Positions 9,797 to 64,000 of a DNA stretch of 64,000 nt are shown one piece after another; the first letter of the stretch is position 1, and every line of letters starts with the position of its first letter. The stretch comes from Mobula hypostoma (taxonomy: Eukaryota). Made by a program: the position numbers and the translations under genes. Location of the stretch: positions 98,272,001 to 98,336,000 of the forward strand of contig NC_086107.1 in assembly GCF_963921235.1 (NCBI RefSeq). The letters run 5' to 3'. The notes under the pieces are model-generated. The model was not told where the DNA came from. It did no database searches and saw only the letters and a program-made list of their open reading frames with translations.

Positions 9797-12700
9797 TGCA
9801 GTGTCTCTGGGATTCTGTCTCTCTGGGATTCAGTGTCTCTGGATCCAGTGTCTCTGGATTCAGTGTCTCTGGGGATTAGTGTCTCTGGGATCCAGTGTCT
9901 CTGGATTCAGTGTCTCTGGGGATTAGTGTCTCTGGGATCCAGTGTCTCTGAATTCAGTGTGTCTGGATTCAGTGTCACTGGGATTCTGTGTCACTGCGAT
10001 TCAGTGTCTCTGGGATTCAGTGTGTCTGGATTCAGTGTCACTGGGACTCAGTGTCTCTGGGATTCTGTGTCTCTGGGATTCAGTGTCACTGGGATTCAGT
10101 GTCACTGGGATTGTGTGTCAATGGGATTCAGTGTCTCTGAGATTCAATGTCACTGGGATTGTGTGTCTCTGGGATTCAGTGTGTCTGGATTCAGTTTGCC
10201 TGGGATCCAGTGTGTCTGGGATTCAGTGTCTCTGAGATCCAGTGCCTCTGCGTCCAGAGTCTCTGGATTCAGTGTGTCTGGATTCTGTGCCTCTGGGATT
10301 CAGTGTCAGTGGGATTCAGTGTCCCGGCATCCAGTGTCTCTGGGATTCAGTGTGTCTGGATTCAGTGTCACTGGGATTGTGTGTCTCTGGGATTTAGTGT
10401 GTCTGGATTCAGTGTGTCTGGGATTCAGTGGTTCTGGGATTCAGTGTCACTGGGATTGTGTGTCTCTGGGATTCAGTGTGTCTGGATTCAGTGTGTCTGG
10501 ATCCAGTGTGTCTGGGATTCAGTGTGTCTGGGAATCAGTGTCTCTGGGATTCAGTGTGTCTGGATTCAGTGTCACTGGGATTCAGTGTGTCTGGGATTCA
10601 GTCTATCTGGGATTCAGTGTCACTGGGATTGTGTGTCTCTGGGATTCAGTGTGTCTCGATTCAGTGTCTCTGGGATTCAGTGTCACTGGGATTGTGTGTC
10701 TCTGGGATTCAGTGTCACTGAGATTCAGTGTCTCTGGGATTCAGTGTGTCTGGATTCAGTGTCACTGGGATTGTGTGTCTCTGGGATTCAGTGTCTCTAG
10801 GATTCAGCGTCACTGCGATTGTGTGTCTCTGGGATTCAGTGTATCTGGGATTCAGTGTCACTGGGATTGTGTGTCTCTGGGATTCAGTGTGTCTCTGGGA
10901 TTCAGTGTGTCTGGATTCAGTGTCTCTGGATTCAGTGTCTCTAGGATTCGGCGTCACTGGGATTGTGTGTCTCTAGGATTCAGCGTCACTGGGATTCTGT
11001 GTCACTGGGATTCAGTGTCACTGGGATTCAGTGTCTCTGGGATTCAGTGTCTCTGGGATTCAGTGTCACTGGGATTGTGTGTCTCTGGGATTCAGTGTGA
11101 CTGGATTCAGTGTCTCTGGGATTCAGTGTCTCTGGGATTCAGTGTCTCTGGGATTCTGTGTCTCTGGGATTCTGTGTCTCTGGGATTCAGTGTCTCTGGA
11201 ATTCAGTGTCACTGAGATTCAGTGTCTCTGGGATTCAGTGTGTCTGGATTCAGTGTCACTGGGATTGTGTGTCTCTGGGATTCAGTGTATCTGGGATTCA
11301 GTGTCACTGGGATTGTGTGTCTCTGGGATTCAGTGTGTCTAGATTCAGTGTCTCTGGATTCAGTGTCTCTAGGATTCGGCGTCACTGGGATTGTGTGTCT
11401 CTAGGATTCAGCGTCACTGGGATTCTGTGTCTCTGGGATTCAGTGTCACTGGGATTCAGTGTCACTGGGATTCAGTGTCTCTGGGATTCAGTGTCACTGG
11501 GATTGTGTGTCTCTGGGATTCAGTGTGACTGGATTCAGGGTCTCTGGGATTCAGAGTCACTGAGATTCTGTGTCTCTGGGATTCTGTGTCTCTGGAATTC
11601 AGTGTCACTGAGATTCAGTGTCTCTGGGATTCAGTGTGTCTGGATTCAGTGTCACTGGGATTCAGTGTCAGTGGGATTCAGTGTCCCAGCATCCAGTGTC
11701 TCTGGGATTCAGTGTGTCTGGATTCAGTGTCACTGGGATTGTGTGTCTCTGGGATTTAGTGTGTCTTGATTCAGTGTGTCTGGGATTCAGTGTCACTGGG
11801 ATTGTGTGTCTCTGGGATTCAGTGTGTCTGGATTCAGTGTGTCTGGATCCAGTGTGTCTGGGAATCAGTGTGTCTGGGAATCAGTGTCTCTGGGATTCAG
11901 TGTGTCTGGATTCAGTGTGACTGGATTCAGTGTCTCTGGGATTCAGTGTCTCTGGGATTCTGTGTCTCTGGAATTCAGTGTCACTGAGATTCAGTGTCTC
12001 TGGGATTCAGTGTATCTGGATTCAGTGTGTCTGGATTCAGTGTCTCTGGGTCAGTGTCTCTAGGATTCGGCGTCACTGGGATTGTGTGTCTCTAGGATTC
12101 AGCGTCACTGGGATTCTGTGTCTCTGGGATTCAGTGTCACTGGGATTCAGTGTCACTGGGATTCAGTGTCTCTGGGATTCAGTGTCACTGGGATTGTGTG
12201 TCTCTGGGATTCAGTGTGACTGGATTCAGTGTCTCTGGGATTCAGTGTCACTGAGATTCTGTGTCTCTGGGATTCAGTGTGACTGGATTCAGTGTCTCTG
12301 GAATTCAGTGTCACTGAGATTCAGTGTCTCTGGGATTCAGTGTGTCTGGATTCAGTGTCACTGGGATTGTGTGTCTCTGGGATTTAGTGTGTCTTGATTC
12401 AGTGTGTCTGGGATTCAGTGGTTCTGGGATTCAGTGTCACTGGGATTGTGTGTCTCTGGGATTCAGTGTGTCTGGATTCAGTGTTGCTGGATCCAGTGTG
12501 TCTGGGAATCAGTGTGTCTGGGAATCAGTGTCTCTGGGATTCAGTGTGTCTGGATTCAGTGTCTCTGGGATTCAGTGTCACTGAGATTCTGTGTCTCTGG
12601 GATTCAGTGTGACTGGATTCAGTGTCTCTGGAATTCAGTGTCACTGAGATTCAGTGTCTCTGGGATTCAGTGTATCTGGATTCAGTGTCACTGGGATTGT

Positions 12701-13743
12701 GTGTCTCTGGGATTTAGTGTGTCTTGATTCAGTGTGTCTGGGATTCAGTGGTTCTGGGATTCAGTGTCACTGGGATTGTGTGTCTCTGGGATTCAGTGTG
12801 TCTGGATTCAGTGTGTCTGGGAATCAGTGTGTCTGGGAATCAGTGTCTCTGGGATTCAGTGTGTCTGGATTCAGTGTGACTGGATTCAGTGTCTCTGGGA
12901 TTCAGTGTCTCTGGGATTCTGTGTCTCTGGAATTCAGTGTCACTGAGATTCAGTGTCTCTGGGATTCAGTGTATCTGGATTCAGTGTCACTGGGATTGTG
13001 TGTCTCTGGGATTCAGTGTGTCTAGATTCAGTGTGTCTGGATTCAGTGTCTCTGGATTCAGTGTCTCTAGGATTCGGCGTCACTGGGATTGTGTGTCTCT
13101 AGGATTCAGCGTCACTGGGATTCTGTGTCTCTGGGATTCAGTGTCACTGGGATTCAGTGTCACTGGGATTCAGTGTCTCTGGGATTCAATGTCACTGGGA
13201 TTGTGTGTCTCTGGGATTGTGTGTCTCTGGGATTCAGTGTGACTGGATTCAGTGTCTCTGGGATTCAGTGTCACTGAGATTCTGTGTCTCTGGGATTCAG
13301 TGTGACTGGATTCAGTGTCTCTGGAATTCAGTGTCACTGAGATTCAGTGTCTCTGGGATTCAGTGTGTCTGGATTCAGTGTCACTGGGATTGTGTGTCTC
13401 TGGGATTCAGTGTCTCTAGGATTCAGCGTCACTGCGATTGTGTCTCTGGGATTCAGTGTGTCTGGATTCAGTGTCTCTGGATTCAGTGTCTCTAGGATTC
13501 GGCGTCACTGGGATTGTGTGTCTCTTGGATTCAGCGTCACTGGGATTCTGTGTCTCTGGGATTCAGTGTCACTGGGATTCAGTGTCACTGGGATTCAGTG
13601 TCTCTGGGATTCAGTGTCTCTGGGATTCAGTGTCACTGGGATTGTGTGTCTCTGGGATTCAGTGTGTCTGGATTCAGTGCCTCTGGATTCAGTGTCACTG
13701 GGATTCAGTGTCACTGGGATTGTGTGTCTCTGGGATTCAGTGC
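9797..13743. repeat. ~3.95 kb satellite array of 15-16 bp units (consensus TGGGATTCAGTGTCTC / TGGATTCAGTGTGTC)
   Basis: Continuous tandem variants visible directly; the many overlapping C/S/V/W-rich ORFs are a by-product of the repeat. Confidence 0.97.
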
Positions 13744-30855: not shown

Positions 30856-32163
30856 ATACATACATACCACACAGAACATGCCAAGCGATAAAGCAACAAC
30901 AGCAAAACTAGCCCCATTCCTCGCTCCAATGAACCCAGCCACGTACAGTCTTCTAAGCCCAGGACAGGCTGGTGGCTCCCTGCCTCCAGTCTCCGACAGA
31001 ACACTGGGGGTGTCCAGTGAGTTTTGAGCTGTGTCCATGGAGAGGAGTGCAGGGCTGGCTCTCAAATTGATGACCTCTCTCAGCAAGTGTCATTGTGTAA
31101 GGGTGTTGACTATGTCTCTCCCTCTTTACCCAGTTTGCTACTTCATGCATTTCCCCCTTCATTCCCCTCCACAGATGATCCATGAGCTGCTGAGCTCCTG
31201 CCGTGTTTTGTTTGTTGATCCCGATTCCAGGGTCTGTAGACTCTTGTGTCTTCACTGTTCCACTGGCCTTTCTCACTCTAAACTATCTCCCCGGAATCGG
31301 TTTTGTCTCAGGTTTTCTGCACCTGCACCATTTAGTCCTGGCCTACGTCTGGCATAAGATATCCTCTTTCCACAGAAGCTGCCTGACCTGAGGGATTTTC
31401 CCCAACATTCTCCTTCATTCCACAGTTGCAATGGGTTAAGTTCCTCTTCTCTGTCCTCCCTCCACCTCCACGCCTCCTGACTGACCAGCTGAGTATTTTT
31501 CATCCTCTTCTAGTCCACACCCTTCTTCACCACGGGCAGAAGTCATGCAACCTCTCCTGGTCCCTGCCCAATCACAGCTGTCCCTTTGGTTCCTGCCAAC
31601 CATTCTATGTGTTAAAACATGCTTTCTTTTCAAATCTTCCCAGTTGTGGTAAAAAACATCATCAAAAAATTTAACTCTGTTCAAAGTTCATCTTTTTGTC
31701 ATCTGATTGTACATTTATAGAACCAAATGAAACTATGTTCCTCCGGACCATGGTACACCCACAAAGCATACATCACACACAGCCCATGAAAGAAAATATT
31801 ACCATAAATAAAGGGTGGCAGGGTGGAGATACATTGCTGCCAAAGCAGGTATAAAGTGCAGCTTCCTTCTGATAGCCTGCAGGTCATCCTTGGGCAAGGT
31901 GTAGCACCTGCTAAGCTCCCCACTCCTTGCCCCGTCCCCCGATCAGGGTCACGTGAAACCATGGGAGCTGGTGGTGGATGGTTGTATGAGTAGCTGGTGC
32001 ATATCACAAGTCCTGGTTGACGCCAGGCAGACAATTTCTGAAGAGTATTGATAACCTCTGGCAGAAGAAATTCCTCCTCACCTCAGTGTTAATGGAACGC
32101 CCCTTGCCCCTTTATTCTGAGCCTGGGCCCTGAGATCTTTGACACTCATACTAATGGAAATAT

Positions 32164-35762: not shown

Positions 35763-35934
35763 ATAAGAAATAGGAGCAGGAGTCGGCCATCTGCCCTGTC
35801 GAGCCTGCTCCGCCATTCAATAAGATCGTGGCTGACCTGGCCATGGACTCGTCTCCACCTATCTGCCTTGTCCCCCTTAACCCTAAATTTCCCCTGCTGT
35901 GCAAAAATCCATCCAACAGCTTTCACCTTTCAAT

Positions 35935-38420
35935 CCCCGCCCCCTGCTGTACTCACTGTACCCCCATGATTGTGTAGCCAAGTTTCCATCGAACTCAATA
36001 TATAAGTTTGCTGATGACGCCACAATTGCAGGCCGTATCTCAGGTAATGATGAGATTGAGTACAGAGAGGAAGTTAAGAACCCGGTGGCATGGTGCGAAG
36101 ACAATAACCTATCCCTCAACATCAGCAAGACGAAGGAATTGGTTGTTGACTTCAGAAGGAGTAGCGGACCTCATGACCCCATCTACATCGGTGGTGCACA
36201 GATGGAACAGGTCAAAAGCTTTAAGTTCCTCGGGGTCAATATCACAAATGACCTGACTTGGTCCAACCAAGCAGAGTCCACTGCCAAGAAGGCCCACCAG
36301 CGCCTTTACTTCCTGAGAAACGTAAAGAAATTTGGCCTGTCCCCTAAAACCCTCACTAATTTTTATAGATGCACCGTAGAAAGCATTCTTCTAGGGTGTA
36401 TCACAACCTGGTATGGAAGTTGTCCTGTCCAAGACTGGAAGAAGCTGCAGAAGATAATTTTTCAAAACTCGTTAGATTCTGGACTAGTTCCTGAGGATTG
36501 GAGGGTGGCTAATGTAACCCCACTTTTTAAAAAAGGAGGGAGAGAGAAACCGGGGAATTATAGACCGGTTAGCCTAACGTCGGTGGTGGGGAAACTGCTG
36601 GAGTCAGTTATCAAAGATGTGATAACAGCACATTTGGAAAGCGGTGAAATGATCGGACAAAGTCAGCATGGATTTGTGAAAGGAAAACCATGTCTGACGA
36701 ATCTCATAGAATTTTTTGAGGGTGTAACTAGTAGAGTGGATGGGGAGAACCAGTGGATGTGGTGTATTTGGATTTTCAAAAGGCTTTTGACAAGGTCCCA
36801 CACAGGAGATTAGTGTGCAAACTTAAAGCACATGGTATTGGGGGTAAGGTATTGGTGTGGGTGGAGAATTGGTTAGCAGACAGGAAGCAAAGAGTGGGAA
36901 TAAACGGGACCTTTTCAGAATGGCAGGCAGTGACTAGTGGGGTACCGCAAGGCTCAGTGCTGGGACCCCAGTTGTTTACAATATATATTAATGACTTGGA
37001 TGAGGGAATTAAATGCAGCATCTCCAAGTTTGCGGATGACACAAAGCTGGGTGGCAGTGTTAGCTGTGAGGAGGATGCTAAGAGGATGCAGGGTGACTTG
37101 GATAGGTTGGGTGAGTGGGCAAATTCATGGCAGATGCAATTTAATGTGGATAAATGTGAAGTTATCCACTTTGGTGGCAAAAATAGGAAAACAGATTATT
37201 ATCTGAATGGTGGCCGATTAGGAAAAGGGGAGGTGCAACGAGACCTGGGTGTCATTATACACCAGTCATTGAAAGTGGGCATGCAGGTACAGCAGGCGGT
37301 GAAAAAGGCGAATGGTATGCTGGCATTTATAGCGAGAGGATTCGAGTACAGGAGCAGGGAGGTACTACTGCAGTTGTACAAGGCCTTAGTGAGACCACAT
37401 CTGGAGTATTGTGTGCAGTTTTGGTCCCCTAATCTGAGGAAAGACATCTTTGCCATAGAGGGAGTACAAAGAAGGTTCACCAGATTGATTCCTGGGATGG
37501 CAGGACTTTCATATGAAGAAAGACTGGATGAACTGGGCTTGTACTCGTTGGAATTTAGAAGATTGAGGGGGGATCTGATTGAAACGTATAAAATCCTAAA
37601 GGGATTGGACAGGCTAGATGCAGGAAGATTGTTCCCGATGTTGGGGAAGTCCAGAACGAGGGGCCACAGTTTGAGGATAGAGGGGAAGCCTTTTAGGACC
37701 GAGATTAGGAAAAACTTCTTCACACAGAGAGTGGTGAATCTGTGGAATTCTCTGCCACAGGAAACAGTTGAGGCCAGTTCATTGGCTATGTTTAAGAGGG
37801 AGTTAGATATGGCCCTTGTGGCTACGGGGGTCAGGGGGTATGGAGGGAAGGCTGGGGCGGGGTTCTGAGTTGGATGATCAGCCATGATCATAATAAATGG
37901 CGGTGCAGGCTCGAAGGGACGAATGGCCTACTCCTGCACCTATTTTCTATGTTTCTATGTTTCTAAGATCATGAACACAGTCCAGCACATCACACAAACC
38001 AATCTTCCGTCCTTGGACTCACTTTACACCGCACGCTGTCGGAGCAGTGCTGCCGGGATAATCAAGGACACGACCCACCCAGCCAACACACTTTTCATCC
38101 CTCTTCCCTCCGGGAGAAGGCTCAGGAGCTTGAAGACTCGTACGGCCAGATTTGGGAACAGCTTCTTTCCATCTGTGATAAGACTGCTGAACGGATCCTG
38201 ACCCAGATCTGGGCCATACCCTCCAAATATCTGGACTTGCCTCTCGGTTTTTTTGCACTACCTTACTTTCCCTTTTCTATTTATGATTTATAATTAAAAT
38301 TTTTATTATATTTACTATGATTTGTACTCCAGGGAGCGTGAAGCTCAGAATCAAATATCACTGTGATGATTGTACGCTCTAGTATCAATTGTTTGGCGAC
38401 GATAAAGTAAAGTAAAGTAA
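35935..38420 (+). mobile_element. Young Rex1/Babar LINE 3' part split by a CR1
   Basis: PLLYSLYPHDC...KFADDATI...KKLQK at 35935-36455 resumes IMNTVQHIT...SFFPSVIRLLN at 37965-38201; (TAAAG)n tail near 38400-38420. Confidence 0.88.
36456..37964 (+). mobile_element. Young 5'-truncated CR1 (RT domain) with a 1-bp deletion near 36742
   Basis: Near-identical to 61740-63242; TSD aagat at 36451-36455 and 37965-37969. Confidence 0.93.
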
Positions 38421-39976: not shown

Positions 39977-42900
39977 GTTCACAACAGAGGGATGGGAACC
40001 AGTGCAGAGAGACAGAGGGGTGTAAAGTGAGCGTAGAAGCAAAAAGTACAAAGGGGAAAAGTAAAAGTGGCAGGTCGACAAATCCAGGGCAAGCATTAAA
40101 AAGGGCTAAGAGAGTTGTAAAAGAGTGCCTGAAGGCTTTATGTGTCAATGCAAGGAGCATTCGTAATAAGGTGGATGAATTGAAAGTGCAGATTGTTATT
40201 AATGATTATGATATAGTTGGGATCACAGAGACATGGCTCCAGGGTGACCAGGGATGGGAGCTCAACGTTCAGGGATATTCAATATTCAGGAGGGATAGAC
40301 ACGAAGGAAGGGGAGGTGGGGTGGCGTTGCTGGTTAAAAAAGAGATTAACGCAATAGAAAGGAAGGACATAAGCCGGGAAGATGTGGAATCGATATGGGT
40401 AGAGCTGCGTAACACTAAGGGGCAGAAGACGCTGGTGGGAGTTGTGTACAGGCCACCTAACAGTAGTAGTGAGGTCGGAGATGGTATTAAACAGGAAATT
40501 AGAAATGTGTGCAATAAAGGAACAGCAGTTATAATGGGTGACTTCAATCTACATGTAGACTGGGTGAACCAAATTGGTAAAGGTGCTGAGGAAGAGGATT
40601 TCTTGGAATGTATGCGGGATGGTTTTTTGAACCAACATGTCGAGGAACCGACTAGAGAGCAGGCTATTCTGGACTGGGTTTTGAGCAATGAGGAAGGGTT
40701 AATTAGCGATCTTGTCGTGAGAGGCCCCTTGGGTAAGAGTGACCATAATATGGTGGAATTCTTCATTAACATGGAGAGTGACGTAGTTAATTCAGAAACA
40801 AAGGTTCTGAACTTAAAGAGGGGTAACTTTGAAGGTATGAGACATGAATTAGCTAAGATAGACTGGCAAATGACACTTCAAGGATTGACGGTGGATATGC
40901 AATGGCAGGCATTTAAAGGTTGCATGGATGAACTACAACAATTGTTCATCCCAGTTTGGCAAAAGAATAAATCAAGGAAGGTAGTGCACCCGTGGCTGAC
41001 AAGAGAAATTAGGGATAGTATCAATTCCAAAGAAGTAGCATACAAATTAGCCAGAGAAAGTGGCTCACCTGAGGACTGGGAGAAATTCAGAGTTCAGCAG
41101 AGGAGGACAAAGGGCTTAATTAGGAAGGGGAAAAAAGATTATGAGAGAAAACTGGCAGAGAACATAAAAACGGACTGTAAAAGCTTTTATAGATATGTAA
41201 AAAGGAAAAGACTGATAAAGACAAATGTAGGTCCCCTGCAAACAGAAACAGGTGAATTGATTATGGGGAGCAAGGACATGGCAGACCAATTGAATAATTA
41301 CTTTGGTTCTGTCTTCACTAAGGAGGACATAAATAATCTTCCAGAAATAGTAAGGGACAGAGGGTCCAGTGAGATGGAGGAACTGAGCGAAATACATGTT
41401 AGTAGGGAAGTGGTGTTAGGTAAATTGAAGGGATTGAAGGCAGATAAATCCCCAGGGCCAGATGGTCTGCATCCCAGAGTGCTTAAGGAAGTGGCCCAAG
41501 AAATAGTGGATGCATTAGTGATAATTTTTCAAAACTCGTTAGATTCTGGACTAGTTCCTGAGGATTGGAGGGTGGCTAATGTAACCCCACTTTTTAAAAA
41601 AGGAGGGAGAGAGAAACCGGGGAATTATAGGCCGGTTAGCCTAACGTCGGTGGTGGGGAAACTGCTGGAGTCAGTTATCAAGGATGTGATAACAGCACAT
41701 TTGGAAAGCGGTGAAATGATCGGACAAAGTCAGCATGGATTTGTGAAAGGAAAATCATGTCTGACGAATCTCATAGAATTTTTTGAGGATGTAACTAGTA
41801 GAGTGGATAGGGGAGAACCAGTGGATGTGGTATATTTGGATTTTCAAAAGGCTTTTGACAAGGTCCCACATAGGAGATTAGTGTGCAAACTTAAAGCACA
41901 CGGTATTGGGGGTAAGGTATTGGTGTGGGTGGAGAATTGGTTAGCAGACAGGAAGCAAAGAGTGGGAATAAACGGGACCTTTTCAGAATGGCAGGCGGTG
42001 ACTAGTGGGGTACCGCAAGGCTCAGTGCTGGGCCCCCAGTTGTTTACAATATATATTAATGACTTGGATGAGGGAATTAAATGCAGCATCTCCAAGTTTG
42101 CGGATGACACGAAGCTGGGTGGCAGTGTTAGCAGTGAGGAGGATGCTAAGAGGATGCAGGGTGACTTGGATAGGTTGGGTGAGTGGGCAAACTCATGGCA
42201 GATGCAATTTAATGTGGATAAATGTGAAGTTATCCACTTTGGTGGCAAAAATAGGAAAACAGATTATTATCTGAATGGTGGCCGATTAGGAAAAGGGGAG
42301 GTGCAACGAGACCTGGGTGTCATTATACACCAGTCATTGAAAGTGGGCATGCAGGTACAGCAGGCGGTGAAAAAGGCGAACGGTATGCTGGCATTTATAG
42401 CGAGAGGATTCGAGTACAGGAGCAGGGAGGTACTACTGCAGTTGTACAAGGCCTTGGTGAGACCACACCTGGAGTATTGTGTGCAGTTTTGGTCCCCTAA
42501 TCTGAGGAAAGACATCTTTGCCATAGAGGGAGTACAAAGAAGGTTCACCAGATTGATTCCTGGGATGGCAGGTCTTTCATATGAAGAAAGACTGGATGAA
42601 CTGGGCTTGTACTCGTTGGAATTTAGAAGATTGAGGGGGGATCTGATTGAAACGTATAAGATCCTAAAGGGATTGGACAGGCTAGATGCAGGAAGATTGT
42701 TCCCGATGTTGGGGAGGTCTAGAACGAGGGGTCACAGTTTGAGGATAGAGGGGAAGCCTTTTAGGACCGAGGTTAGGAAAAACTTCTTCACACAGAGAGT
42801 GGTGAATCTGTGGAATTCTCTGCCACAGCAAACTGTTGAGGCCAGTTCATTAGCTATGTTTAAAAGGAAGTTAGATATGGCCCTTGTGGCTACAGGGGTC

Positions 42901-43029
42901 AGGGGGTATGGAGGGAAGGCTGGGTTCTGAGTTGGATGATCAGCCATGATCATAATAAATGGCGGTGCAGGCTCGAAGGGCCGAATGGCCTACTCCTGCA
43001 CCTATTTTCTATGTTTCTATGTTTCTATG
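39977..43029 (+). mobile_element. 5'-truncated young CR1 retaining almost all of ORF2, inserted in an older CR1
   Basis: Colinear with 60193-63245 (offset 20216); the older CR1 host reads ...aggccaaaagggcc | atgaaatgcccttg across the insertion. Confidence 0.95.
40027..42930 (+). CDS. CR1 ORF2, APE endonuclease plus reverse transcriptase (uninterrupted, but no ORF1 or promoter)
   Basis: NARSI, GITETW, VYRPP, GDFN, SDH endonuclease motifs; QHGF, LDFQKAFD, GVPQGSVLGP, FADD RT motifs. The GTG start is only the ORF-finder choice. Confidence 0.9.
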   Translation: MSVEAKSTKGKSKSGRSTNPGQALKRAKRVVKECLKALCVNARSIRNKVDELKVQIVINDYDIVGITETWLQGDQGWELNVQGYSIFRRDRHEGRGGGVALLVKKEINAIERKDISREDVESIWVELRNTKGQKTLVGVVYRPPNSSSEVGDGIKQEIRNVCNKGTAVIMGDFNLHVDWVNQIGKGAEEEDFLECMRDGFLNQHVEEPTREQAILDWVLSNEEGLISDLVVRGPLGKSDHNMVEFFINMESDVVNSETKVLNLKRGNFEGMRHELAKIDWQMTLQGLTVDMQWQAFKGCMDELQQLFIPVWQKNKSRKVVHPWLTREIRDSINSKEVAYKLARESGSPEDWEKFRVQQRRTKGLIRKGKKDYERKLAENIKTDCKSFYRYVKRKRLIKTNVGPLQTETGELIMGSKDMADQLNNYFGSVFTKEDINNLPEIVRDRGSSEMEELSEIHVSREVVLGKLKGLKADKSPGPDGLHPRVLKEVAQEIVDALVIIFQNSLDSGLVPEDWRVANVTPLFKKGGREKPGNYRPVSLTSVVGKLLESVIKDVITAHLESGEMIGQSQHGFVKGKSCLTNLIEFFEDVTSRVDRGEPVDVVYLDFQKAFDKVPHRRLVCKLKAHGIGGKVLVWVENWLADRKQRVGINGTFSEWQAVTSGVPQGSVLGPQLFTIYINDLDEGIKCSISKFADDTKLGGSVSSEEDAKRMQGDLDRLGEWANSWQMQFNVDKCEVIHFGGKNRKTDYYLNGGRLGKGEVQRDLGVIIHQSLKVGMQVQQAVKKANGMLAFIARGFEYRSREVLLQLYKALVRPHLEYCVQFWSPNLRKDIFAIEGVQRRFTRLIPGMAGLSYEERLDELGLYSLEFRRLRGDLIETYKILKGLDRLDAGRLFPMLGRSRTRGHSLRIEGKPFRTEVRKNFFTQRVVNLWNSLPQQTVEASSLAMFKRKLDMALVATGVRGYGGKAGF

Positions 43030-45001
43030 AAATGCCCTTGACAAGTAGGATTAAAGAGAATCCAAGGATTCTCATACTTACATTACAAACAAGAGGATAA
43101 TTAGAGAGGGGGTAGGGCCACTCAGAGGATGTGGGAGAGGTACCAAACGAGTGCTTTGCATTGATTTCACCAAGGAGAAGTACACGAAGGATACTGGGTT
43201 TATTGCGGGCCAGGCTCATGTACTTGGGCATTTTGAGGTTAAGGAGGAGGAGGTGTTTCTGGGTCCTTTGAAGAGCATCAACGTGGATAAGCCTCCAGGG
43301 CCCGACAGGATATGTCTCAGGTCATTGAAGCAGACAAGAAGGGAAATTATTCAGGCCTTGATGAAGATCTTTGTATCCTCACTAGCAACAGAACTCCCAG
43401 AGGTTTGGAGAGCAGCCAGTGTTATTCCTTTGTTCAGGAAGGAAAATAGAGATAATCCAGGAAACTACAGGCCAGCCAGCTTCACATCAATGGTAGGGAA
43501 GCTGTTGGAGACATTTTTTAGGGATAGGATTTACTCACATTGAATAAACTGTAGCATTATGTGGAACAAGTCACGTCTTACAACTTGATTGAGTAGGTGG
43601 CAAAGGTGATTGCTGAGAGTAGGGCAGTGGATGCGGTCTACATGGATTTTGGTAAGGCATTTATCCCACATGATAGGCCAATCCAGAAGATTAAGATGTA
43701 TGGGATCTGTGATGACTTGGTAGTGTGGACCCAGGAGAGGCTGCCATTGAAGACAGAGGGTAGTGGTCAACAGGATTTACTCTGACCTGGGGGTCCGTGA
43801 CCAGTCATGCTCAGCCAGGATCGGGTGCTGGATCTCTGTGTTTGTGATACATATAAATGATTCGGATAGCTGGGTTAGTGGGTTTGAAGATGATACAAAA
43901 GTAGGTGGAGTTGTGTACGGTGTAGAGGGCTGTAGATACAATGGAATATAGATCTGTTGCAGATATGGATAGGACCATTAATAGATAAATAAATAGATAG
44001 ATACTTTATTGATCCCAAAGGAAATTACAGTGTCACAGTAGCATTACAAGTGTACAGATAAACAAATATTAGAAGAGAAGTAAGAAAGAATAAAAAATAA
44101 GTTACCTCAAACAGTCTAACAGGAGGGGTGGTCATCACTTCCCCAGCTATAGCTTGATTCATTATAGAGCCTAATGGCTGAGGGTAAGAATGACCTCATA
44201 TAGCGCTCCTTGGAGCAGCACAGTTGTCTTAGTCTATTAGTAAAAGTGCTTCTCTGTTCAGCCAAAGTGCCATGTAGAGGGTGAGGAATTGTCAGGATTT
44301 CCCTTTGTTCTACCACAGCCTCTAGTGTGTCCAGTTTGACTCCTATAACAGAGCCAGCCTTTCTAATCAGTTTATTGAGCCTGTTGGCATCACCCATGTT
44401 GATGCCATTGCCCCAGCACACCACCGCAGAGAAGATTGTACTGGCGACAACGGGCTGGTAGAACATGTGAAGGCGAAGCCTGCGTACTCCAAAGGTCCTC
44501 AGTCTTCTCCGGAAGTAGAGGCGACTCTGGCCCTTCTTGTACACAGCCTCTGTGATGGTGCTCCACTCAAGTCTGTCGTGCAGGTGCACCCAGGTACTTG
44601 AGCATTGATGTACAGAAGATCCAAGTCCATAGCCTTCCTGAAAGTATCCATGCAAGAAGATAGGGTGGGAAAGAAGGTAAATGGCAAACTTGCCTTCATT
44701 GGTTGGGGCATTGAGTTAGAGGGCTCAGGAAGTCATGTTGTAGCTACATAAAACTTTGGTTAGGGTGCACTTGGAGTATTGCGTGTAATTCTGGTTGCCC
44801 AGGAGGGGTATGGAAAGAGTGCAGAAGAGGTTCACCAAGAGGCTGCCTGGATAAGGAGAAGTTGGACAAACTTGGGCTGTTTTCTCTGCAGCACTGGAGG
44901 CTGAGAGATGTTTATTAAATAATGAGAGGCACACTTAGGTAGACATTCAGAATCTTTATCCCAGGGTAGAAAGGTCAAGTACAAGAGGACATGGATTTAA
45001 G

Positions 45002-55152: not shown

Positions 55153-58100
55153 AGGAGATCGAGGATGAGAAGGATAATAAATTAGCCATGAGGGAATAGC
55201 GGAGCAAATTTGATGGAGCAAATAGCCTAAACCTGCTCCCATGTCTTATAGTCTCATGGATTATATTTAAAAAAGATCGAGATGTCCAGGCACAGAAAGC
55301 ATCAAGGGATGTACGGGGAGAGATATTTTGGGAACTGGTACTGGTTTATTATTGTCCCAAGTACCAAGTTACAGTGAAAAACTTATCTTGCAGACTGTTC
55401 ATATAGATCAAATCAATACATTGAGGTAGAACAAGGTAAGACAATTATGATGCAGAATAAAGTGTAACAGCTACAAAGAAAATCCTGTGCGGGTAAACAA
55501 TAAGGTGCAAGATCAAAGCGAGATAGGTTATGGTAGATGTGGAAATATGGTATTGAGTAGGGGGACATGTTGAATGACAGAACATGCTTGAAGGCCAAGA
55601 TGGCTCCTATTTAGAACATAGAACGTAGAAGACTACGACGTTTTGCCGGCCTCTTAACCTACTCTAAGATCAATTCAACCCTTCCCTCCTACATTGCCCT
55701 CCATCATCCACGTACCATTTCTTAAAAGTCCCCAATGTACCTGCCTCTACCACCACCCTTGGCAGGGAATTTCCAAACACCCACAACTCTCTCTTTAAAG
55801 AACTTACCTCTGACAACCCCCACTATACTTTCCTTCAGTCACCTTAAAGTTAGTCATTTCCCCCCTGGGAAAAGTCTCTGGCTATCCAATCGATCCACGC
55901 CCCTTATCATTTCTTGTACACCTCCCATTCTCAATTCCTCCAAAGAGAAAAGCCTTCTCACTCACTCTTTCCTCATAATACATGCTCTCTAATCCAGGTG
56001 ACCAATCCTCTAGTTCAGGCAGCATCCTGGCAAATCTCCTCTGCAACCTCGCTAAAGCTTCCACATCTTTCCTTCAATGAGGCGACCAGAACTGAACACA
56101 ATATTCTAACCAAGGTTTTATAGCCCTGCAACACTTCTCATGGTCTTAATCCTTCAGGACACAGTAACAATAAACTTCCTACAGGTTCCAGGAATTCCAC
56201 TCCTAAAATGGGAGAGGTTTAAATGTTAAATCTGTCAGCCGGCTCCCAGCTTCCCAGATCAGCGTTGCTCCAATGGCCTCTTTGTGTCATTTGCTTTGAT
56301 TTGAACAATCCTATTGTTCTGTATTTAGATGTTGTTTTCCCCTCTGGATCACAGGGTGCTGATTGTTGCAGGCGTGACTTTAATCTCCTGCAGTATTTGA
56401 CAAGACAACCAAATGCATATACACAGCCAGTTCAGAAGCTGCTGCCTGCCCCTCATGAGCCTGGATTTGAAACAAAAATGACAACCAGACTTTCTGCAGA
56501 TCATCAGACCTTAACAGATCTGCCTAACTACATTCCAGCAGCCTCATCTAGTCACCTATCCATAAAGCACAAGATTTGCAGATGCTGGAAATCCAAAGCA
56601 ACACAGGTCAAATGTGGCGGGGGGGGGGTGGGGGGTGGGGGAGCTCAGTGGGTCAGAAAGCATCTATCGAGAGGGATAAATGGTCGTGCTTCGAGCTGAG
56701 ACGTCGACTGCTTATTCCTCTCCGTAGATGCTGCCTGACCTGCTGAGCTCCTCCTGCATCCTGTGTGTGTTGCAAAGGGAATATCCGTTCAGAAATCCCG
56801 CAGCAACTGCAGCCCACCCAGCAGCTCGTCTACTGGCCAATATGCTGTATCTTGTCCTCAGCCCGGCCAGAAGACTATCAGCCAGTCTAGAAACAATTAA
56901 ATGCTAATTGCATCTATCTTTACATCTCAGTCACAGTCCAGTTGTACAAACAATGCGACGAGACAAAAAATGCATGTGGTACTAGTCACGGTCCCGGCCA
57001 AACTAAGGGACGATTGTTGGTCTGGATCCCAGAATTCCCCACCCAATGCACAACTGGCATTAGGAACCCTTACTCCTTCATTTCCAAACTCTCCTCTCTT
57101 TGAATTTGCAGTTGACTGCCTTTCCGTTCTCAGAGCAGGTGTTCGTTCTGGTATCCCACATCCTTGGAGAACATTGCAGGTCTTAAAGATGGCCATTTAC
57201 CTCAGGAAAATGGGATTATGCTATCTCCAATATATTCCTAGAGGCTCTGAGAGATAGGAAACACAGCAACCCCAGACAGGAAGAAAGTTAAGAGTGAGAT
57301 TCTTCAATTAAAATGCCATGATTGATGGAATCTTGTCTCTTTAACTGAGCTCCTGGATGAAACGCGGATGGCTCACACATTGTCTCTTTAGATTTACTCT
57401 CCCTTTCACACTTGTACTAAAACACACAGGCACTGCCATTTGCAGCAATATTGCCAGGCAGCCTCATAATTACATAGCCAACACAGCCACCTTGACAGCC
57501 ACACACAAATTAGCAGAATCCCTGACACTCTGATTCACCCTGTCAAAAATGCCACAGTTAAGTAACAAACAACAATGAGATGGCTGAGTTCCAACCAAAC
57601 ACCACTATTACATTCCTTCCCACTGAGCTATTTATAGCCTGACTCTCTAGCCTCGTGCATTGGATAGCATTTAAGATCAACATCTTCGGACTGGGCTCCA
57701 ACGCGCTAATAACTTAGTCTGTGTCAGTTCAGAACCTACATGTTCAGAATCAAGTTTAATAACACTGGCATATCGTGAAATTTGTTAACTTTGCGACAGC
57801 AGTACAATGCAATACATGGTAATAAAGGAAAATGTTAATTACACTAATTATATATATACAATGCCTATAAAAAGTATTCACCCCCTCTCCTTGGAAGTTT
57901 TCATGTTTTATTGTTTTACAACATTGGATTTAATTTGGCTTTTTTGACACTGATCAACAGAAAAAGACTTTCGTGTCAAAGTGAAAACAGATCTCTACAA
58001 AGTGATCTAAATTTATTACAGATATAAAACACAAAATAATTGATTGTATTAAGTATTCGCCCCCTTTAATATGACACACCAAATCATCACTGGTGCAGCC

Positions 58101-58605
58101 AGTTTGGTTTAGAAGTCACATAATTAGTTAGATGGAGGTCACCATGTGCAATGAGGTTGTTTCAATTGATTGTAGTAAAAATACATCTGTATCTGAAAAG
58201 TTCAATTGCTGGAGAGTCAGTATCCTGGCAAAAACTACACCATGAAGACAAGCCAACACTCCAAGCAACTCCGTGGAAAGGTTATTGAAAAGCACAAGTC
58301 AGGAGATGGATACAAGAAAATTTCAAAGTCACTGAATATCCCTTGGAGTACAGTTAAATCAATCATCAAGAAATGGAAAGAATATGGCACAGCTGTAAAT
58401 CTGCCTAGAGCAGGCTGTCCTCAAAAACTGAGTGAGGGAGGCCGCCAAGAAACCTGTGACAATTCTGGAGGAGTTACAAGCTTCAATGCCTGAGACGGGA
58501 GAGACTGTACATACAACAAAGGTTGCCCGGTTTCTTCACCAGTTGCAGCTTTATGGGAGAGTGGCGAAGAGAAAGCCACTGTTGAAAAAAATCACATGAA
58601 ATGTG

Positions 58606-59043
58606 ATTTCGTTATTTTTTTTTCTCCAACGGCTTTCTGAGAGGCAGGACTGCGCAGGCGTGTGACGTCGGGCAGTGCAGCGCGGCAGATTTAAAAGGGC
58701 AGACATCCTGCTTCGGATTTGATTCGAAGAAGGAGTCTGAGAGTCTGAGTGGGAGTGCCGAGAAAGAGATTTTTGAAATTTTCGTTATTTTTTTTTCTCC
58801 AACGGCTTTCTGAGAGGCGGGACTGCGCAGGCGTGTGACGTCGGGCAGTGCAGCGCGGCAGATTTAAAAGGGCAGACATCCTGCTTCGGATTTGATTCGA
58901 AGAAGGAGTCTGAGAGTCTGAGTGGGAGTGCCGAGAAAGAGATTTTTGAAATTTTCGTTATTTTTTTTCTCCAACGGCTTTCTGAGAGGCGGGACTGCGC
59001 AGGCGTGTGACGTCGGGCAGTGCAGCGCGGCAGATTTAAAAGG
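58606..59043 (+). promoter_or_regulatory. Tandem 172-173 bp CpG-rich 5' UTR monomers (about 2.5 copies) with promoter-like motifs
   Basis: ctccaacggc recurs at 58624, 58797 and 58969; units carry ggcggg (ggcagg in the first), tgcgcaggcg, tgacgtc and tttaaaa in that order. Confidence 0.75.
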
Positions 59044-59205
59044 AACAAAGCCTCATAGAGCGGGCAGCGTAGTTTGCGGGCGGCGGAGTGAGCCGGGAGC
59101 AGAGTGAAGACTTAAGGGCTTCGGCTCAACGGGCTTAGGCGGAAGCGGGCGAGGCGAGGAAGGTTTGACATTCATTTTCTGTTGCTATTTGAGGAGAGGG
59201 GCATT

Positions 59206-60141
59206 ATGACTGTGAGGGCAGTTTGCTGTTCTCGGTGTCGGATGTGGGAGGCCCTGGAGTCTCCAAGCCTCCCGGACGTCTACATCTGCGCCAAGTGCAT
59301 CGAGATGCAGCTCCTAAGGGACCGCGTTACGGAACTGGAGCTGCAGCTCGATGACCTTCGTCTGGTCAGGGAGAGCGAGGAGGTGATAGAGAGGAGTGGA
59401 AGGCAGGTGGTCACGCCGGGGCCACGGGAGGCAGACAAGTGGGTCACGGTTAGGAGAGGGAAGGGGAAAAGGCAGGTGATGAGGAGTACCCCGGCGGCTG
59501 TGCCCCTTAACAACAGGTACTCCTGTTTGAGTACTGTTGGGGGGGACAGCTTACCCGGGGGAAGCGACAGTGGCCCTGCCTCCGGCACAGAGTCTGGCCC
59601 TGTAGCTCAGAAGGGTAGGGCAAGGAAGAGGAGGGCAGTTGTGATAGGGGACTCGATAGTAAGGGGGTCAGATAGGCGATTCTGTGGACGCAGTCCAGAG
59701 ACTCGGATGGTAGTTTGCCTCCCTGGTGCCAGGGTCCGGGATATTTCTGATCGTGTCCAAGATATCCTGAAGTGGGAGGGTGAAGAGCCAGAGGTCCTGG
59801 TACATATAGGTACCAATGACATAGGTAGGAAAAGGGATGAGGTCCTGAAAGAAGAATATAGGGAGCTAGGAAGGGAGTTGAGAAAAAGGACCGCAAAGGT
59901 AGTAATCTCGGGATTACTGCCTGTGCCACGCGACAGTGAGAGTAGGAATGCGATGAGGTGGAGGATAAATGCGTGGCTGAGGGATTGGAGCAGGGGGCAG
60001 GGATTCAAGTTTTTGGATCATTGGGACCTCTTTTGGCGTAGGTGTGACCTGTACAAAAAGGACGGGTTACACTTAAATCCTAGGGGGACCAATATCCTGG
60101 CAGGGAGATTAGCGGGGGCTACTGAGGTGACTTTAAACTAG
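59206..60141 (+). CDS. CR1 ORF1 protein (311 aa): Zn finger, coiled coil, SGNH/GDSL esterase
   Basis: First ATG at 59206; CSRC...CAKC, heptad LLRDRVTELELQLDDL, GDS / PGA / HIGTND / DGLH blocks. Confidence 0.93.
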   Translation: MTVRAVCCSRCRMWEALESPSLPDVYICAKCIEMQLLRDRVTELELQLDDLRLVRESEEVIERSGRQVVTPGPREADKWVTVRRGKGKRQVMRSTPAAVPLNNRYSCLSTVGGDSLPGGSDSGPASGTESGPVAQKGRARKRRAVVIGDSIVRGSDRRFCGRSPETRMVVCLPGARVRDISDRVQDILKWEGEEPEVLVHIGTNDIGRKRDEVLKEEYRELGRELRKRTAKVVISGLLPVPRDSESRNAMRWRINAWLRDWSRGQGFKFLDHWDLFWRRCDLYKKDGLHLNPRGTNILAGRLAGATEVTLN

Positions 60142-63100
60142 AATGGTTGGGGGGTGGGAATCAAATTAAAGCGGCTAGGTGTGAGGAGGTTAGTTCACAA
60201 CAGAGGGATGGGAACCAGTGCAGAGAGACAGAGGAGTGTAAAGTGAGCGTAGAAGCAAAAAGTACAAAGGGGAAAAGTAAAAGTGGCAGGCCGACAAATC
60301 CAGGGCAAGCATTAAAAAGGGCTAAGAGAGTTGTAAAAGAGCGCCTGAAGGCTTTATGTGTCAATGCAAGGAGCATTCGTAATAAGGTGGATGAATTGAA
60401 AGTGCAGATTGTTATTAATGATTATGATATAGTTGGGATCACAGAGACATGGCTCCAGGGTGACCAGGGATGGGAGCTCAACGTTCAGGGATATTCAATA
60501 TTCAGGAGGGATAGACACGAAGGAAGGGGAGGTGGGGTGGCGTTGCTGGTTAAAAAAGAGATTAACGCAATAGAAAGGAAGGACATAAGCCGGGAAGATG
60601 TGGAATCGATATGGGTAGAGCTGCGTAACACTAAGGGGCAGAAGACGCTGCTGGGAGTTGTGTACAGGCCACCTAACAGTAGTAGTGAGGTCGGAGATGG
60701 TATTAAACAGGAAATTAGAAATGTGTGCAATAAAGGAACAGCAGTTATAATGGGTGACTTCAATCTACATGTAGACTGGGTGAACCAAATTGGTAAAGGT
60801 GCTGAGGAAGAGGATTTCTTGGAATGTATGCGGGATGGTTTTTTGAACCAACATGTCGAGGAACCGACTAGAGAGCAGGCTATTCTGGACTGGGTTTTGA
60901 GCAATGAGGAAGGGTTAATTAGCGATCTTGTCGTGAGAGGCCCCTTGGGTAAGAGTGACCATAATATGGTGGAATTCTTCATTAACATGGAGAGTGACGT
61001 AGTTAATTCAGAAACAAAGGTTCTGAACTTAAAGAGGGGTAACTTTGAAGGTATGAGACATGAATTAGCTAAGATAGACTGGCAAATGACACTTCAAGGA
61101 TTGACGGTGGATATGCAATGGCAGGCATTTAAAGGTTGCATGGATGAACTACAACAATTGTTCATCCCAGTTTGGCAAAAGAATAAATCAAGGAAGGTAG
61201 TGCACCCGTGGCTGACAAGAGAAATTAGGGATAGTATCAATTCCAAAGAAGTAGCATACAAATTAGCCAGAGAAAGTGGCTCACCTGAGGACTGGGAGAA
61301 ATTCAGAGTTCAGCAGAGGAGGACAAAGGGCTTAATTAGGAAGGGGAAAAAAGATTATGAGAGAAAACTGGCAGAGAACATAAAAACGGACTGTAAAAGC
61401 TTTTATAGATATGTAAAAAGGAAAAGACTGATAAAGACAAATGTAGGTCCCCTGCAAACAGAAACAGGTGAATTGATTATGGGGAGCAAGGACATGGCAG
61501 ACCAATTGAATAATTACTTTGGTTCTGTCTTCACTAAGGAGGACATAAATAATCTTCCAGAAATAGTAAGGGACAGAGGGTCCAGTGAGATGGAGGAACT
61601 GAGCGAAATACATGTTAGTAGGGAAGTGGTGTTAGGTAAATTGAAGGGATTGAAGGCAGATAAATCCCCAGGGCCAGATGGTCTGCATCCCAGAGTGCTT
61701 AAGGAAGTGGCCCAAGAAATAGTGGATGCATTAGTGATAATTTTTCAAAACTCGTTAGATTCTGGACTAGTTCCTGAGGATTGGAGGGTGGCTAATGTAA
61801 CCCCACTTTTTAAAAAAGGAGGGAGAGAGAAACCGGGGAATTATAGGCCGGTTAGCCTAACGTCGGTGGTGGGGAAACTGCTGGAGTCAGTTATCAAGGA
61901 TGTGATAACAGCACATTTGGAAAGCGGTGAAATGATCGGACAAAGTCAGCATGGATTTGTGAAAGGAAAATCATGTCTGACGAATCTCATAGAATTTTTT
62001 GAGGATGTAACTAGTAGAGTGGATAGGGGAGAACCAGTGGATGTGGTATATTTGGATTTTCAAAAGGCTTTTGACAAGGTCCCACACAGGAGATTAGTGT
62101 GCAAACTTAAAGCACATGGTATTGGGGGTAAGGTATTGGTGTGGGTGGAGAATTGGTTAGCAGACAGGAAGCAAAGAGTGGGAATAAACGGGACCTTTTC
62201 AGAATGGCAGGCGGTGACTAGTGGGGTACCGCAAGGCTCAGTGCTGGGACCCCAGTTGTTTACAATATATATTAATGACTTGGATGAGGGAATTAAATGC
62301 AGCATCTCCAAGTTTGCGGATGACACGAAGCTGGGTGGCAGTGTTAGCAGTGAGGAGGATGCTAAGAGGATGCAGGGTGACTTGGATAGGTTGGGTGAGT
62401 GGGCAAACTCATGGCAGATGCAATTTAATGTGGATAAATGTGAAGTTATCCACTTTGGTGGCAAAAATAGGAAAACAGATTATTATCTGAATGGTGGCCG
62501 ATTAGGAAAAGGGGAGGTGCAACGAGACCTGGGTGTCATTATACACCAGTCATTGAAAGTGGGCATGCAGGTACAGCAGGCGGTGAAAAAGGCGAACGGT
62601 ATGCTGGCATTTATAGCGAGAGGATTCGAGTACAGGAGCAGGGAGGTACTACTGCAGTTGTACAAGGCCTTGGTGAGACCACACCTGGAGTATTGTGTGC
62701 AGTTTTGGTCCCCTAATCTGAGGAAAGACATCCTTGCCATAGAGGGAGTACAAAGAAGGTTCACCAGATTGATTCCTGGGATGGCAGGTCTTTCATATGA
62801 AGAAAGACTGGATGAACTGGGCTTGTACTCGTTGGAATTTAGAAGATTGAGGGGGGATCTGATTGAAACGTATAAGATCCTAAAGGGATTGGACAGGCTA
62901 GATGCGGGAAGATTGTTCCCGATGTTGGGGAGGTCTAGAACGAGGGGTCACAGTTTGAGGATAGAGGGGAAGCCTTTTAGGACCGACGTTAGGAAAAACT
63001 TCTTCACACAGAGAGTGGTGAATCTGTGGAATTCTCTGCCACAGCAAACTGTTGAGGCCAGTTCATTAGCTATGTTTAAAAGGAAGTTAGATATGGCCCT

Positions 63101-63146
63101 TGTGGCTACAGGGGTCACGGGGTATGGAGGGAAGGCTGGGTTCTGA
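60138..63146 (+). CDS. CR1 ORF2 (APE endonuclease plus RT), open from 60126; start given at the predicted frameshift entry
   Basis: All endonuclease and RT motifs intact; no in-frame ATG before 60750. Confidence 0.93.
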   Translation, partial: LEWLGGGNQIKAARCEEVSSQQRDGNQCRETEECKVSVEAKSTKGKSKSGRPTNPGQALKRAKRVVKERLKALCVNARSIRNKVDELKVQIVINDYDIVGITETWLQGDQGWELNVQGYSIFRRDRHEGRGGGVALLVKKEINAIERKDISREDVESIWVELRNTKGQKTLLGVVYRPPNSSSEVGDGIKQEIRNVCNKGTAVIMGDFNLHVDWVNQIGKGAEEEDFLECMRDGFLNQHVEEPTREQAILDWVLSNEEGLISDLVVRGPLGKSDHNMVEFFINMESDVVNSETKVLNLKRGNFEGMRHELAKIDWQMTLQGLTVDMQWQAFKGCMDELQQLFIPVWQKNKSRKVVHPWLTREIRDSINSKEVAYKLARESGSPEDWEKFRVQQRRTKGLIRKGKKDYERKLAENIKTDCKSFYRYVKRKRLIKTNVGPLQTETGELIMGSKDMADQLNNYFGSVFTKEDINNLPEIVRDRGSSEMEELSEIHVSREVVLGKLKGLKADKSPGPDGLHPRVLKEVAQEIVDALVIIFQNSLDSGLVPEDWRVANVTPLFKKGGREKPGNYRPVSLTSVVGKLLESVIKDVITAHLESGEMIGQSQHGFVKGKSCLTNLIEFFEDVTSRVDRGEPVDVVYLDFQKAFDKVPHRRLVCKLKAHGIGGKVLVWVENWLADRKQRVGINGTFSEWQAVTSGVPQGSVLGPQLFTIYINDLDEGIKCSISKFADDTKLGGSVSSEEDAKRMQGDLDRLGEWANSWQMQFNVDKCEVIHFGGKNRKTDYYLNGGRLGKGEVQRDLGVIIHQSLKVGMQVQQAVKKANGMLAFIARGFEYRSREVLLQLYKALVRPHLEYCVQFWSPNLRKDILAIEGVQRRFTRLIPGMAGLSYEERLDELGLYSLEFRRLRGDLIETYKILKGLDRLDAGRLFPMLGRSRTRGHSLRIEGKPFRTDVRKNFFTQRVVNLWNSLPQQTVEASSLAMFKRKLDMALVATGVTGYGGKAGF

Positions 63147-63179
63147 GTTGGATGATCAGCCATGATCATAATAAATGGC

Positions 63180-63245
63180 GGTGCAGGCTCGAAGGGCCGA
63201 ATGGCCTACTCCTGCACCTATTTTCTATGTTTCTATGTTTCTATG
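63180..63245 (+). other. CR1 3' recognition stem-loop and 8-bp terminal repeat
   Basis: ggtgcagg (63180-63187) pairs with cctgcacc (63211-63218), enclosing ggcc-gaat-ggcc; followed by TTTCTATG x3. Confidence 0.85.
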
Positions 63246-64000
63246 AAATCTCAGATAGAGTTTGCCAGAAGGCATGTGGGAGACTCTGATGTCAGTTGAA
63301 AGAAGGTTATACGGTCTGATGAAACCACCATCAGACTTAACGCTATGTTTGGCCTAAGACAAACACCGCACATCATCAAAAACACAACATCCCTACCGTG
63401 AAGCATGGTGGTGGCTGCATCGTGCTGTGGGGACGCTTCACTGCAGCAGGCCCTGGAAGGCTTGTGAAGGTGGAGGGTAAAATGAATCCAGCAAATACAG
63501 GGAAATCCTGGAGGAAAACCTGATGCAGTCTGCAAGAGAACTGCGACTTGGGAGAAGATTTGTTTTCCAGCAAGGCAATCACCCCAAGCGTAAAGCCAAA
63601 GCTACGCAAGAATGGCTTAAAAACAACAAAGGTAATGTCCAGGAGTGACAAAATGGAGACCTCAATCCGACTGAGAATTTGTGGCTGGACTTGAAAAGGG
63701 CTGTTCATTCACGATCCCCATGCAATCTGACAGAGCTTGAACAACTTCATAACAAAGAATGGGGAAAAAAATTGCATGTCCTGATGTGCAAAGCTGATAC
63801 AGACCTATCCACACAGACTCAAGGCTGTAATTGCTGCCAAAGGTACATCTACTAAATACTGACTTGAGGGGGGCAAATACTTGTGCAATCAATTATTTTG
63901 TGTTTTAGATTCAAAAATAATTTAGATCACTTTGTAGAGATCTGTTTTCACTTTGACATGAAAAAGTCTTTTACTGTTGATCAGTGTCAAAAAAGCCAAA

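Follow-up and report, generated by a model that had tools for sequence, protein, structure and literature searches.

The CR1 retrotransposon described here lies in a 64-kb stretch of DNA from a Mobula ray (the whole of the stretch that was analysed being called the window below) and begins with a tandem array of near-identical units, each carrying a promoter-like block; comparison with related sequences confirms this tandem layout as a trait of the family. It seems probable from these sequences that each block acts as an upstream-type promoter firing into the spacer that follows it, such that daughter copies would inherit n−1 blocks from a parent having n, and arrays would have to regrow. Comparisons with published consensus sequences were made by eye, using the first ~400 letters of 78 CR1 rows in the available part of the supplement to PMC13343379, and it is to these rows that all statements below about named consensus sequences apply.

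The element and its insertion site

The element is an intact CR1, with an esterase ORF1 and an endonuclease-reverse transcriptase ORF2, inserted into a Tc1 copy; its features, and those of its target, are given here for the plus strand. ORF1 (59206-60141, 311 aa) specifies an SGNH/GDSL esterase (Pfam Lipase_GDSL_2, E 4e-16) that shares 98% identity with a protein of Mobula hypostoma and has its closest named homologues in rays and sharks, and the ORF2 frame (60126-63146), with an AP endonuclease and a reverse transcriptase, is open throughout and lies in the −1 frame relative to ORF1. The 3′ UTR (63147-63245) ends in three 8-base tail repeats. Three features of a canonical vertebrate CR1 (an esterase ORF1, an ORF2 with AP endonuclease and reverse transcriptase, and a 3′ end of 8-base repeats without poly-A) are all present, and the 5′ UTR in the window matches sequences that the same supplement classes as CR1.

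Where the two reading frames overlap (60126-60141), a slippery-type heptamer (60132-60138) immediately precedes the ORF1 stop; the first Met of ORF2 is residue 209, inside the endonuclease, and in an alignment of 26 sequences the final residue of ORF1 is N throughout. The overlap is consistent with a programmed −1 frameshift. One shark-type CR1 ORF1 protein (P0022) is entered in the public collections, on a contig of 4.2 kb, under the name of a Pseudomonas aeruginosa hydrolase, and the record is likely to represent host contamination of the public entry.

The insertion is bounded by a 7-bp target-site duplication, of which the left copy (58596-58602) has the same seven letters as the right copy (63243-63249), the latter overlapping the tail by 3 bases. 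The target was a decayed Tc1-type DNA transposon, the left part of which (57934-58602) retains HTH_SB (E 4e-19) and HTH_Tnp_Tc3_2 (E 3e-9) matches, and the right part (63250-64000) a DDE_3 match that is weak (E 0.019) and falls short of the curated cut-off; a terminal inverted match of 89% joins 57934-58064 to 63869-64000. The same seven letters follow the tails of two young CR1 copies (63243-63249 and 43026-43032), and a similar string follows that of a third, on the minus strand near 32160, so that either a target preference or microhomology with the tail is possible. The window also holds a 16-base minisatellite of about 250 copies (9799-13742) and a truncated CR1 (35887-37968) joined in frame, at about 36453, to part of a different LINE that bears an RT.

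At the 5′ junction (58589-58609, no strand assigned) there is a perfect 9-bp inverted repeat with a 3-base loop, completed by filler (58603-58606) that is a fold-back copy of target DNA; a seeded 4-base fold-back of this kind is possible at 126 of 63,960 window positions. The junction can be read from its sequence as a repair-type join made after truncation. The original prediction had begun the array at 58603, but the filler falls outside any unit. The present copy was truncated at its 5′ end, which lies 58 bases beyond the phase of the family (see below), from which it follows that the RNA held at least three blocks. The family is young, because a truncated copy at 39977-43033 is 99.6% identical.

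Architecture of the array

The array occupies 58607-59043, with a period of 173, 2.5 copies, 99% matches and a score of 860 according to TRF, which bears out the earlier description of about 2.5 near-identical units of 172-173 bp. Its order is A-B-A-B-A, where A comprises a T run and a motif block and B is an 81-base spacer, and over its whole length it contains just one substitution (58646) and one indel in a T run. Part A of unit 1 (58607-58698, this and all other parts being on the plus strand) carries a T run, a GC box with one change, NRF1-like and CRE-like sites and TTTAAAA at 58690, and is followed by the first copy of spacer B (58699-58779), which contains a hairpin and a predicted start near 58721. 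Part A of unit 2 (58780-58871) has its promoter-like block with TTTAAAA at 58863, and it is in the second copy of spacer B (58872-58952) that the 5′ ends of the family map by eye, at 58891-58896 (TATA +28 to +33). Part A of unit 3 (58953-59043) holds the last promoter-like block, comprising a GC-box-like site (58987-58993), an NRF1-like site (58996-59005), a CRE-like site (59008-59014) and TTTAAAA (59035-59041), with a predicted start at 59066. The four motifs anticipated for each unit were accordingly located, with the reservation that the GC box of unit 1 holds the substitution; the T runs, put at 8 to 10 letters, in fact measure 9, 9 and 8.

Taken singly, these motifs occurred in 114 (NRF1-like), 756 (CRE-like), 260 (TATA-like) and 5,878 (GC box) of 20,000 dinucleotide shuffles of one unit, and the NRF1-like, CRE-like and TATA-like motifs occurred together in none of the 20,000, figures that are to be read in the knowledge that the consensus motifs were picked post hoc, with the sequence already in view. 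The TTTAAAA of the window differs by one letter from the canonical TATA box. The CpG observed/expected ratio is 1.26 in the array as against 0.35 in the window, and the last block is undiverged from the others. There is only one such array within the 64-kb window, where the unit matches nothing else and, in particular, shows no match to the element's own 3′ end. No YY1 motif is present in the window's unit or spacer, nor is there any sign of a tRNA-like head (0 tRNA genes in the window, and no Rfam tRNA match in the unit).

As had been proposed, the array gives way to unique sequence just past the last TTTAAAA, at 59044, and this unique 5′ UTR, or tether (59044-59205, 162 bases, plus strand), separates the array from ORF1. 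The notion that the tether is itself an old decayed unit was rejected, as 1035 and 919 of 2000 shuffles align equally well.

The block and the tandem layout in other copies

A search of the consensus sequences for a 13-base GC/NRF1-like string located it at 10 places in nine of them (six from Hypanus and three from Pristis). In all nine a TATA-like box lies 28-42 bases beyond the string (41-42 in five; 42 in the window), and in HypSab_CR1-12 the box is canonical. A CRE core is present in 6/9 (as the full palindrome in three), an AP-1-like site in one, and neither in the remaining two; in HypSab_CR1-6a two letters of the NRF1-like site are missing. The block is kept while spacers differ between families, and is common to three ray genera. 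Among the alligator sequences, AllMis_CR1-1a resembles the ray block in having a canonical NRF1 site and then TTTAAAA at its very front, and four others begin with E-box-like sites, as the available part of PMC2734521 describes for chicken.

Of most significance for the tandem layout is HypSab_CR1-12, from the Atlantic stingray, which carries a tandem pair of units having the GC-box/NRF1-like block in common with the window, a spacer that differs from that of the window and a homologous tether; its share of intact ORF2 (208/839) is the highest among the 17 stingray families shown. Across the consensus sequences and the window the number of blocks is one, two or three, and six of the seven block-bearing Hypanus sequences have one only. 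Single-unit copies elsewhere had been named as what would count against the original prediction, and here the outcome is mixed: most stingray consensus sequences are indeed single-block, yet their starts fall within the spacer, at the phase predicted, and under the model this is to be expected of daughters of two-block parents.

Public sequencing runs provide a further line of evidence. Contig depth was taken over 58830-59730 in 4 of the 23 listed runs (X1, X5, X9 and X13; X19-X23, with small shares, were left out), all four being analysed as contigs; X5 is guessed to be RNA. Relative to the unique UTR, summed depth was 1.1, 1.1, 1.2 and 0.11 for spacer B and 1.1, 2.0, 1.6 and 1.3 for the last block (X1, X5, X9 and X13 respectively), so that unit depth is about equal to that of the unique UTR in runs of two organisms; such figures give no unit number, because neighbouring UTR bins vary 2.6- to 15-fold. 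One X13 contig, from another organism, runs from the end of a block through a spacer into the next block (58847-59004; 12 changes, 11 gap letters), and one X9 contig extends 43 letters to either side of 58890, the block-to-spacer contigs of X13 and X9 having at most 25 block-side letters, under the 31-letter bridge rule.

Several other possible signals were set aside. The steps in depth that follow the TATA-like boxes (between bins 58861 and 58892, and between bins 59047 and 59078) were discarded as a start signal, as neighbouring bins differ equally, and depth at the first-place block end was discarded as a junction count, 12-125 contigs per run fitting two places. The fusion proteins P0064, P0066 and P0026, considered as array-initiated transcripts, do not show such starts. 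A motif search for loci in metagenome, viral and prokaryote collections gave 0 matches in each, an ORF1 search of the same three kinds of public collection gave no confirmed locus, and searches with chance reading frames across unit junctions gave no candidates and 0 matches, a result that is uninformative either way.

Phase of the 5′ ends

The distance from a TATA box to the start of transcription is about 30 bases. If position 58863, where the upstream box has its first T, is taken as the origin of counting, all seven block-bearing Hypanus consensus sequences begin between TATA +28 and +33, these being the sequences with a clear block among 19 Hypanus CR1 rows (HypSab_CR1-9 and -2, whose fronts are variant or different, were unregistrable and were left out, and the other ten stop short of the block). 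HypSab_CR1-12 starts at +29, measured on its own second unit, while on the window spacer the starts are +32 for HypSab_CR1-1, +33 for -5 and -6a, about +33 for -15, +31 for -17 and +28 for -18. It must be remembered that the seven represent about four related lineages and that six of them borrow the register of the window, CR1-15 being the least sure. A catshark sequence, ScyCan_CR1-11b, with an unrelated CCAAT/TATA unit, starts at its own +34, and two X5 contigs with different flanks join the element at 58895 (+32). Both kinds of junction are followed, at +31, by a pyrimidine-purine step. The chance of hitting a 7-base target in a 173-base unit is ~4%, and three separate registers match (the window, CR1-12 and the catshark).

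Not all of the results fall into line. None of the three block-bearing Pristis consensus sequences is in phase, and four of six rows with tandem fronts (PriPec_CR1-4, LeuEri_CR1-1, AciRut_CR1-1 and SquAca_CR1-15b) lack a canonical TATA at −28 to −34. Block-less copies starting at 59066, a class that the model predicts, were absent from the 24 listed of 1,831 loose ends.

The hairpin and the turnover of units

The small cttcgga/ttcgaag hairpin noted earlier is present, but turns out to be the tip of a 17-pair stem (58873-58912, plus strand; z −4.79, equalled in 0/300 shuffles), the loop of which (58892-58894) lies at the inferred start. Its 5′ arm repeats, in inverted orientation, the 18 bases with which the inferred RNA would begin. 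The single stem change displayed, A to G at 58890, preserves pairing as G-U. Rfam returned no ribozyme or other family on the array at E up to 5, the three weak matches in the search all lying at the Tc1 junction and none being a ribozyme, and the long stem is not visible in the spacer of HypSab_CR1-12. The hairpin could be an aid to template jumping, a relic of fold-back or a cut site. A second hairpin, over the T run, was rejected as within chance (z −0.5).

With all units collapsed on one another, G at 58890 accounts for 99.9% of the depth in X9 and 30% in X1, with A in both window spacers; at 58979, G accounts for 96% in X9 and 13% in X1, with T in all three window blocks. Likewise, the units of HypSab_CR1-12 resemble each other and not the window spacer. 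This uniformity of units within a species argues that arrays are rebuilt from the current unit. An 8-base duplication in the spacer (58903-58920) is probably recent, as X1, X9 and X13 each have a contig that lacks it and it is absent from HypSab_CR1-6a too.

A proposed mechanism and its alternatives

According to the preferred reading, the array would be the promoter of this ray CR1 family and its unit a compact Pol II promoter of the upstream type, made up of a GC box, an NRF1-like site, a CRE and a TATA-like box, from which RNA would start about 31 bases past the TATA box, within the next spacer. The firing block would be left behind and every downstream block copied into the RNA, a parent with n blocks giving daughters that have at most n−1 and begin at spacer positions 58891-58896. 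Arrays would then be rebuilt from the current unit, often enough for the family to survive and for its units to stay uniform, by either of two routes: the cDNA end might jump from the RNA's 5′ terminus to the same stretch of sequence within a downstream unit, or there might be unequal exchange in DNA. We infer promoter activity and start site from sequence, and likewise that each round costs one unit and that arrays are then rebuilt. The idea of a self-renewing upstream promoter, as originally put forward, survives to the extent that the array is a family trait and that relatives appear to start ~30 bases past the TATA position of a lost unit; what does not survive is erosion by itself, which is insufficient because the block is common to three ray genera.

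The most serious competitor, though an unlikely one, is that the promoter is internal, the block acting from downstream to start RNA about 90-150 bases upstream, at 58895, so that one unit would be self-sufficient and extra units would be boosters or by-products, placing the system nearer to mouse L1 or to the amniote E-box CR1s. The prevalence of single blocks in Hypanus (6/7) and the empty class at 59066 among the 24 listed of 1,831 loose ends both speak for this, as does a 7/8 match to the mouse L1 YY1 motif (from the available part of PMC6454616) about 35-50 bases past the start in HypSab_CR1-12, -5 and -6a. However, the window spacer has no YY1 match, the upstream TATA-to-start distance holds in the two self-measured cases (+29 and +34) even though spacer lengths vary, and a conserved TATA-like box would be left without a role.

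RNA processing, in which cleavage of a read-through RNA within the 17-pair hairpin's loop yields a phased 5′ end, as in the ribozyme-trimmed R2-type elements, would account for the coincidence of the loop (58892-58894) with the mapped 5′ ends, for the strength of the fold (z −4.79) and for the fact that the sole displayed stem change (58890) stays paired. It is nonetheless improbable, given that no Rfam ribozyme or other family is found on the array (E up to 5), that HypSab_CR1-12 shows the same start phase with no long stem visible, and that the conserved promoter motifs go unexplained. More improbable again is a duplication peculiar to this locus, made at insertion, or an artefact of assembly: the solitary array in the window and the repair-type filler at its 5′ junction would fit, but the tandem form recurs in a stingray consensus and a block-spacer-block contig in another organism, and the units differ at two places and so are not one read counted twice. 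As an explanation for the family this possibility is largely refuted.

The preferred reading, of upstream promoters lost and restored, can be extended, although the extension is distinctly doubtful. The CR1s of rays, perhaps together with those of many sharks and of older vertebrate lineages, might run on ordinary gene-type upstream promoters that are restored during reverse transcription by a cDNA jump of one unit, aided by the hairpin, with unrelated units (GC/NRF1/CRE-TATA in rays, CCAAT-TATA in the catshark) having reached the 30-base phase separately. The jump to one unit downstream would then be the LINE counterpart of LTR strand transfer.

Implications

LINEs are generally held to require internal promoters, upstream ones being lost on copying. 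If the reading preferred here is true, a tandem TATA-type promoter would be a clean exception among LINEs, and one found in the dominant LINE group of rays; L2/CR1/Rex elements make up 12.5-22% of batoid genomes according to the available part of bioRxiv 10.64898/2026.10.27.761883. The array, together with the starts of its relatives, suggests that each unit would launch an RNA carrying the later units, so that copies could be re-activated, and complete portable promoters would then lie scattered across ray genomes. If the start is fixed and one unit is lost per round, the number of units and the junctions in many young copies could show whether template jumping or unequal crossing-over is at work.

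Comparison with known systems

In Dictyostelium, the A-module of TRE5-A is repeated in tandem. Like the ray unit it is a 5′ module, of 200 bp, and it has promoter activity (available part of PMC3159450), as is predicted for the ray unit; TRE5-A differs from the ray CR1 in being L1-related and tRNA-gene-targeting, with a promoter that is unrelated and internal. In HeT-A and Penelope (available parts of PMC2377424 and PMC4700185) an upstream copy provides the promoter for the sequence downstream, as proposed here, but there it is a neighbouring element whose 3′ UTR supplies the promoter, whereas the ray unit is a dedicated 5′ module without a match to the 3′ end.

Closer to hand, the 5′ UTR of chicken CR1-B has reporter activity and Sp1 sites, and the CR1 elements of turtle and pufferfish are cited as having direct repeats of 32 bp (PMC2734521, available part). 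Although of the same clade as the ray element, CR1-B is of E-box type and about 240 bp, with no large monomers described and no mention of TATA in the available text of that paper. For CR1-group LINEs, the legend to Fig. 4 of PMC13343379 mentions repeating subunits close to the 5′ UTR, 1-5 in number and 100-500 bp long, but in the available text these are stated for ORF1-less elements only and given no function, whereas the ray element is a canonical CR1 with an esterase ORF1. The terms “promot”, “monomer” and “tandem” have 0 occurrences in the available main text of that paper, the supplement to which itself contains unremarked tandem examples. In the literature searched, which took in neither most subscription journals nor Repbase reports, no earlier description of TATA-type promoter units in CR1 was found.

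The closest parallel is with the L1Md monomers of mouse (A, Tf and Gf), where phased 5′ ends match CAGE peaks (available parts of PMC6454616, PMC9022269 and PMC5381506) and where second-strand priming or unequal crossing-over has been proposed for the regrowth of arrays (PMC6454616). Common to both are tandem CpG-rich units of ~200 bp ahead of a tether and ORF1, and 5′ ends that cluster at a single phase of the unit (for the ray, in 7/7 block-bearing Hypanus but 0/3 Pristis sequences, by eye). The ray element is, however, a CR1 with an esterase ORF1 and not a member of the L1 clade; its block is TATA-type and wholly upstream of the inferred start, with an apparently tight phase, whereas in mouse L1 the starts are scattered across 30-40 bases close to YY1 or AP-1 sites (the term TATA being absent from the available text of PMC6454616 and PMC9022269); and its last block has not diverged, whereas the mouse M1 has diverged from the other monomers. 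The best reading is that the ray array works like the mouse L1 monomers, what is new being that it is TATA-type and that it is found in CR1.
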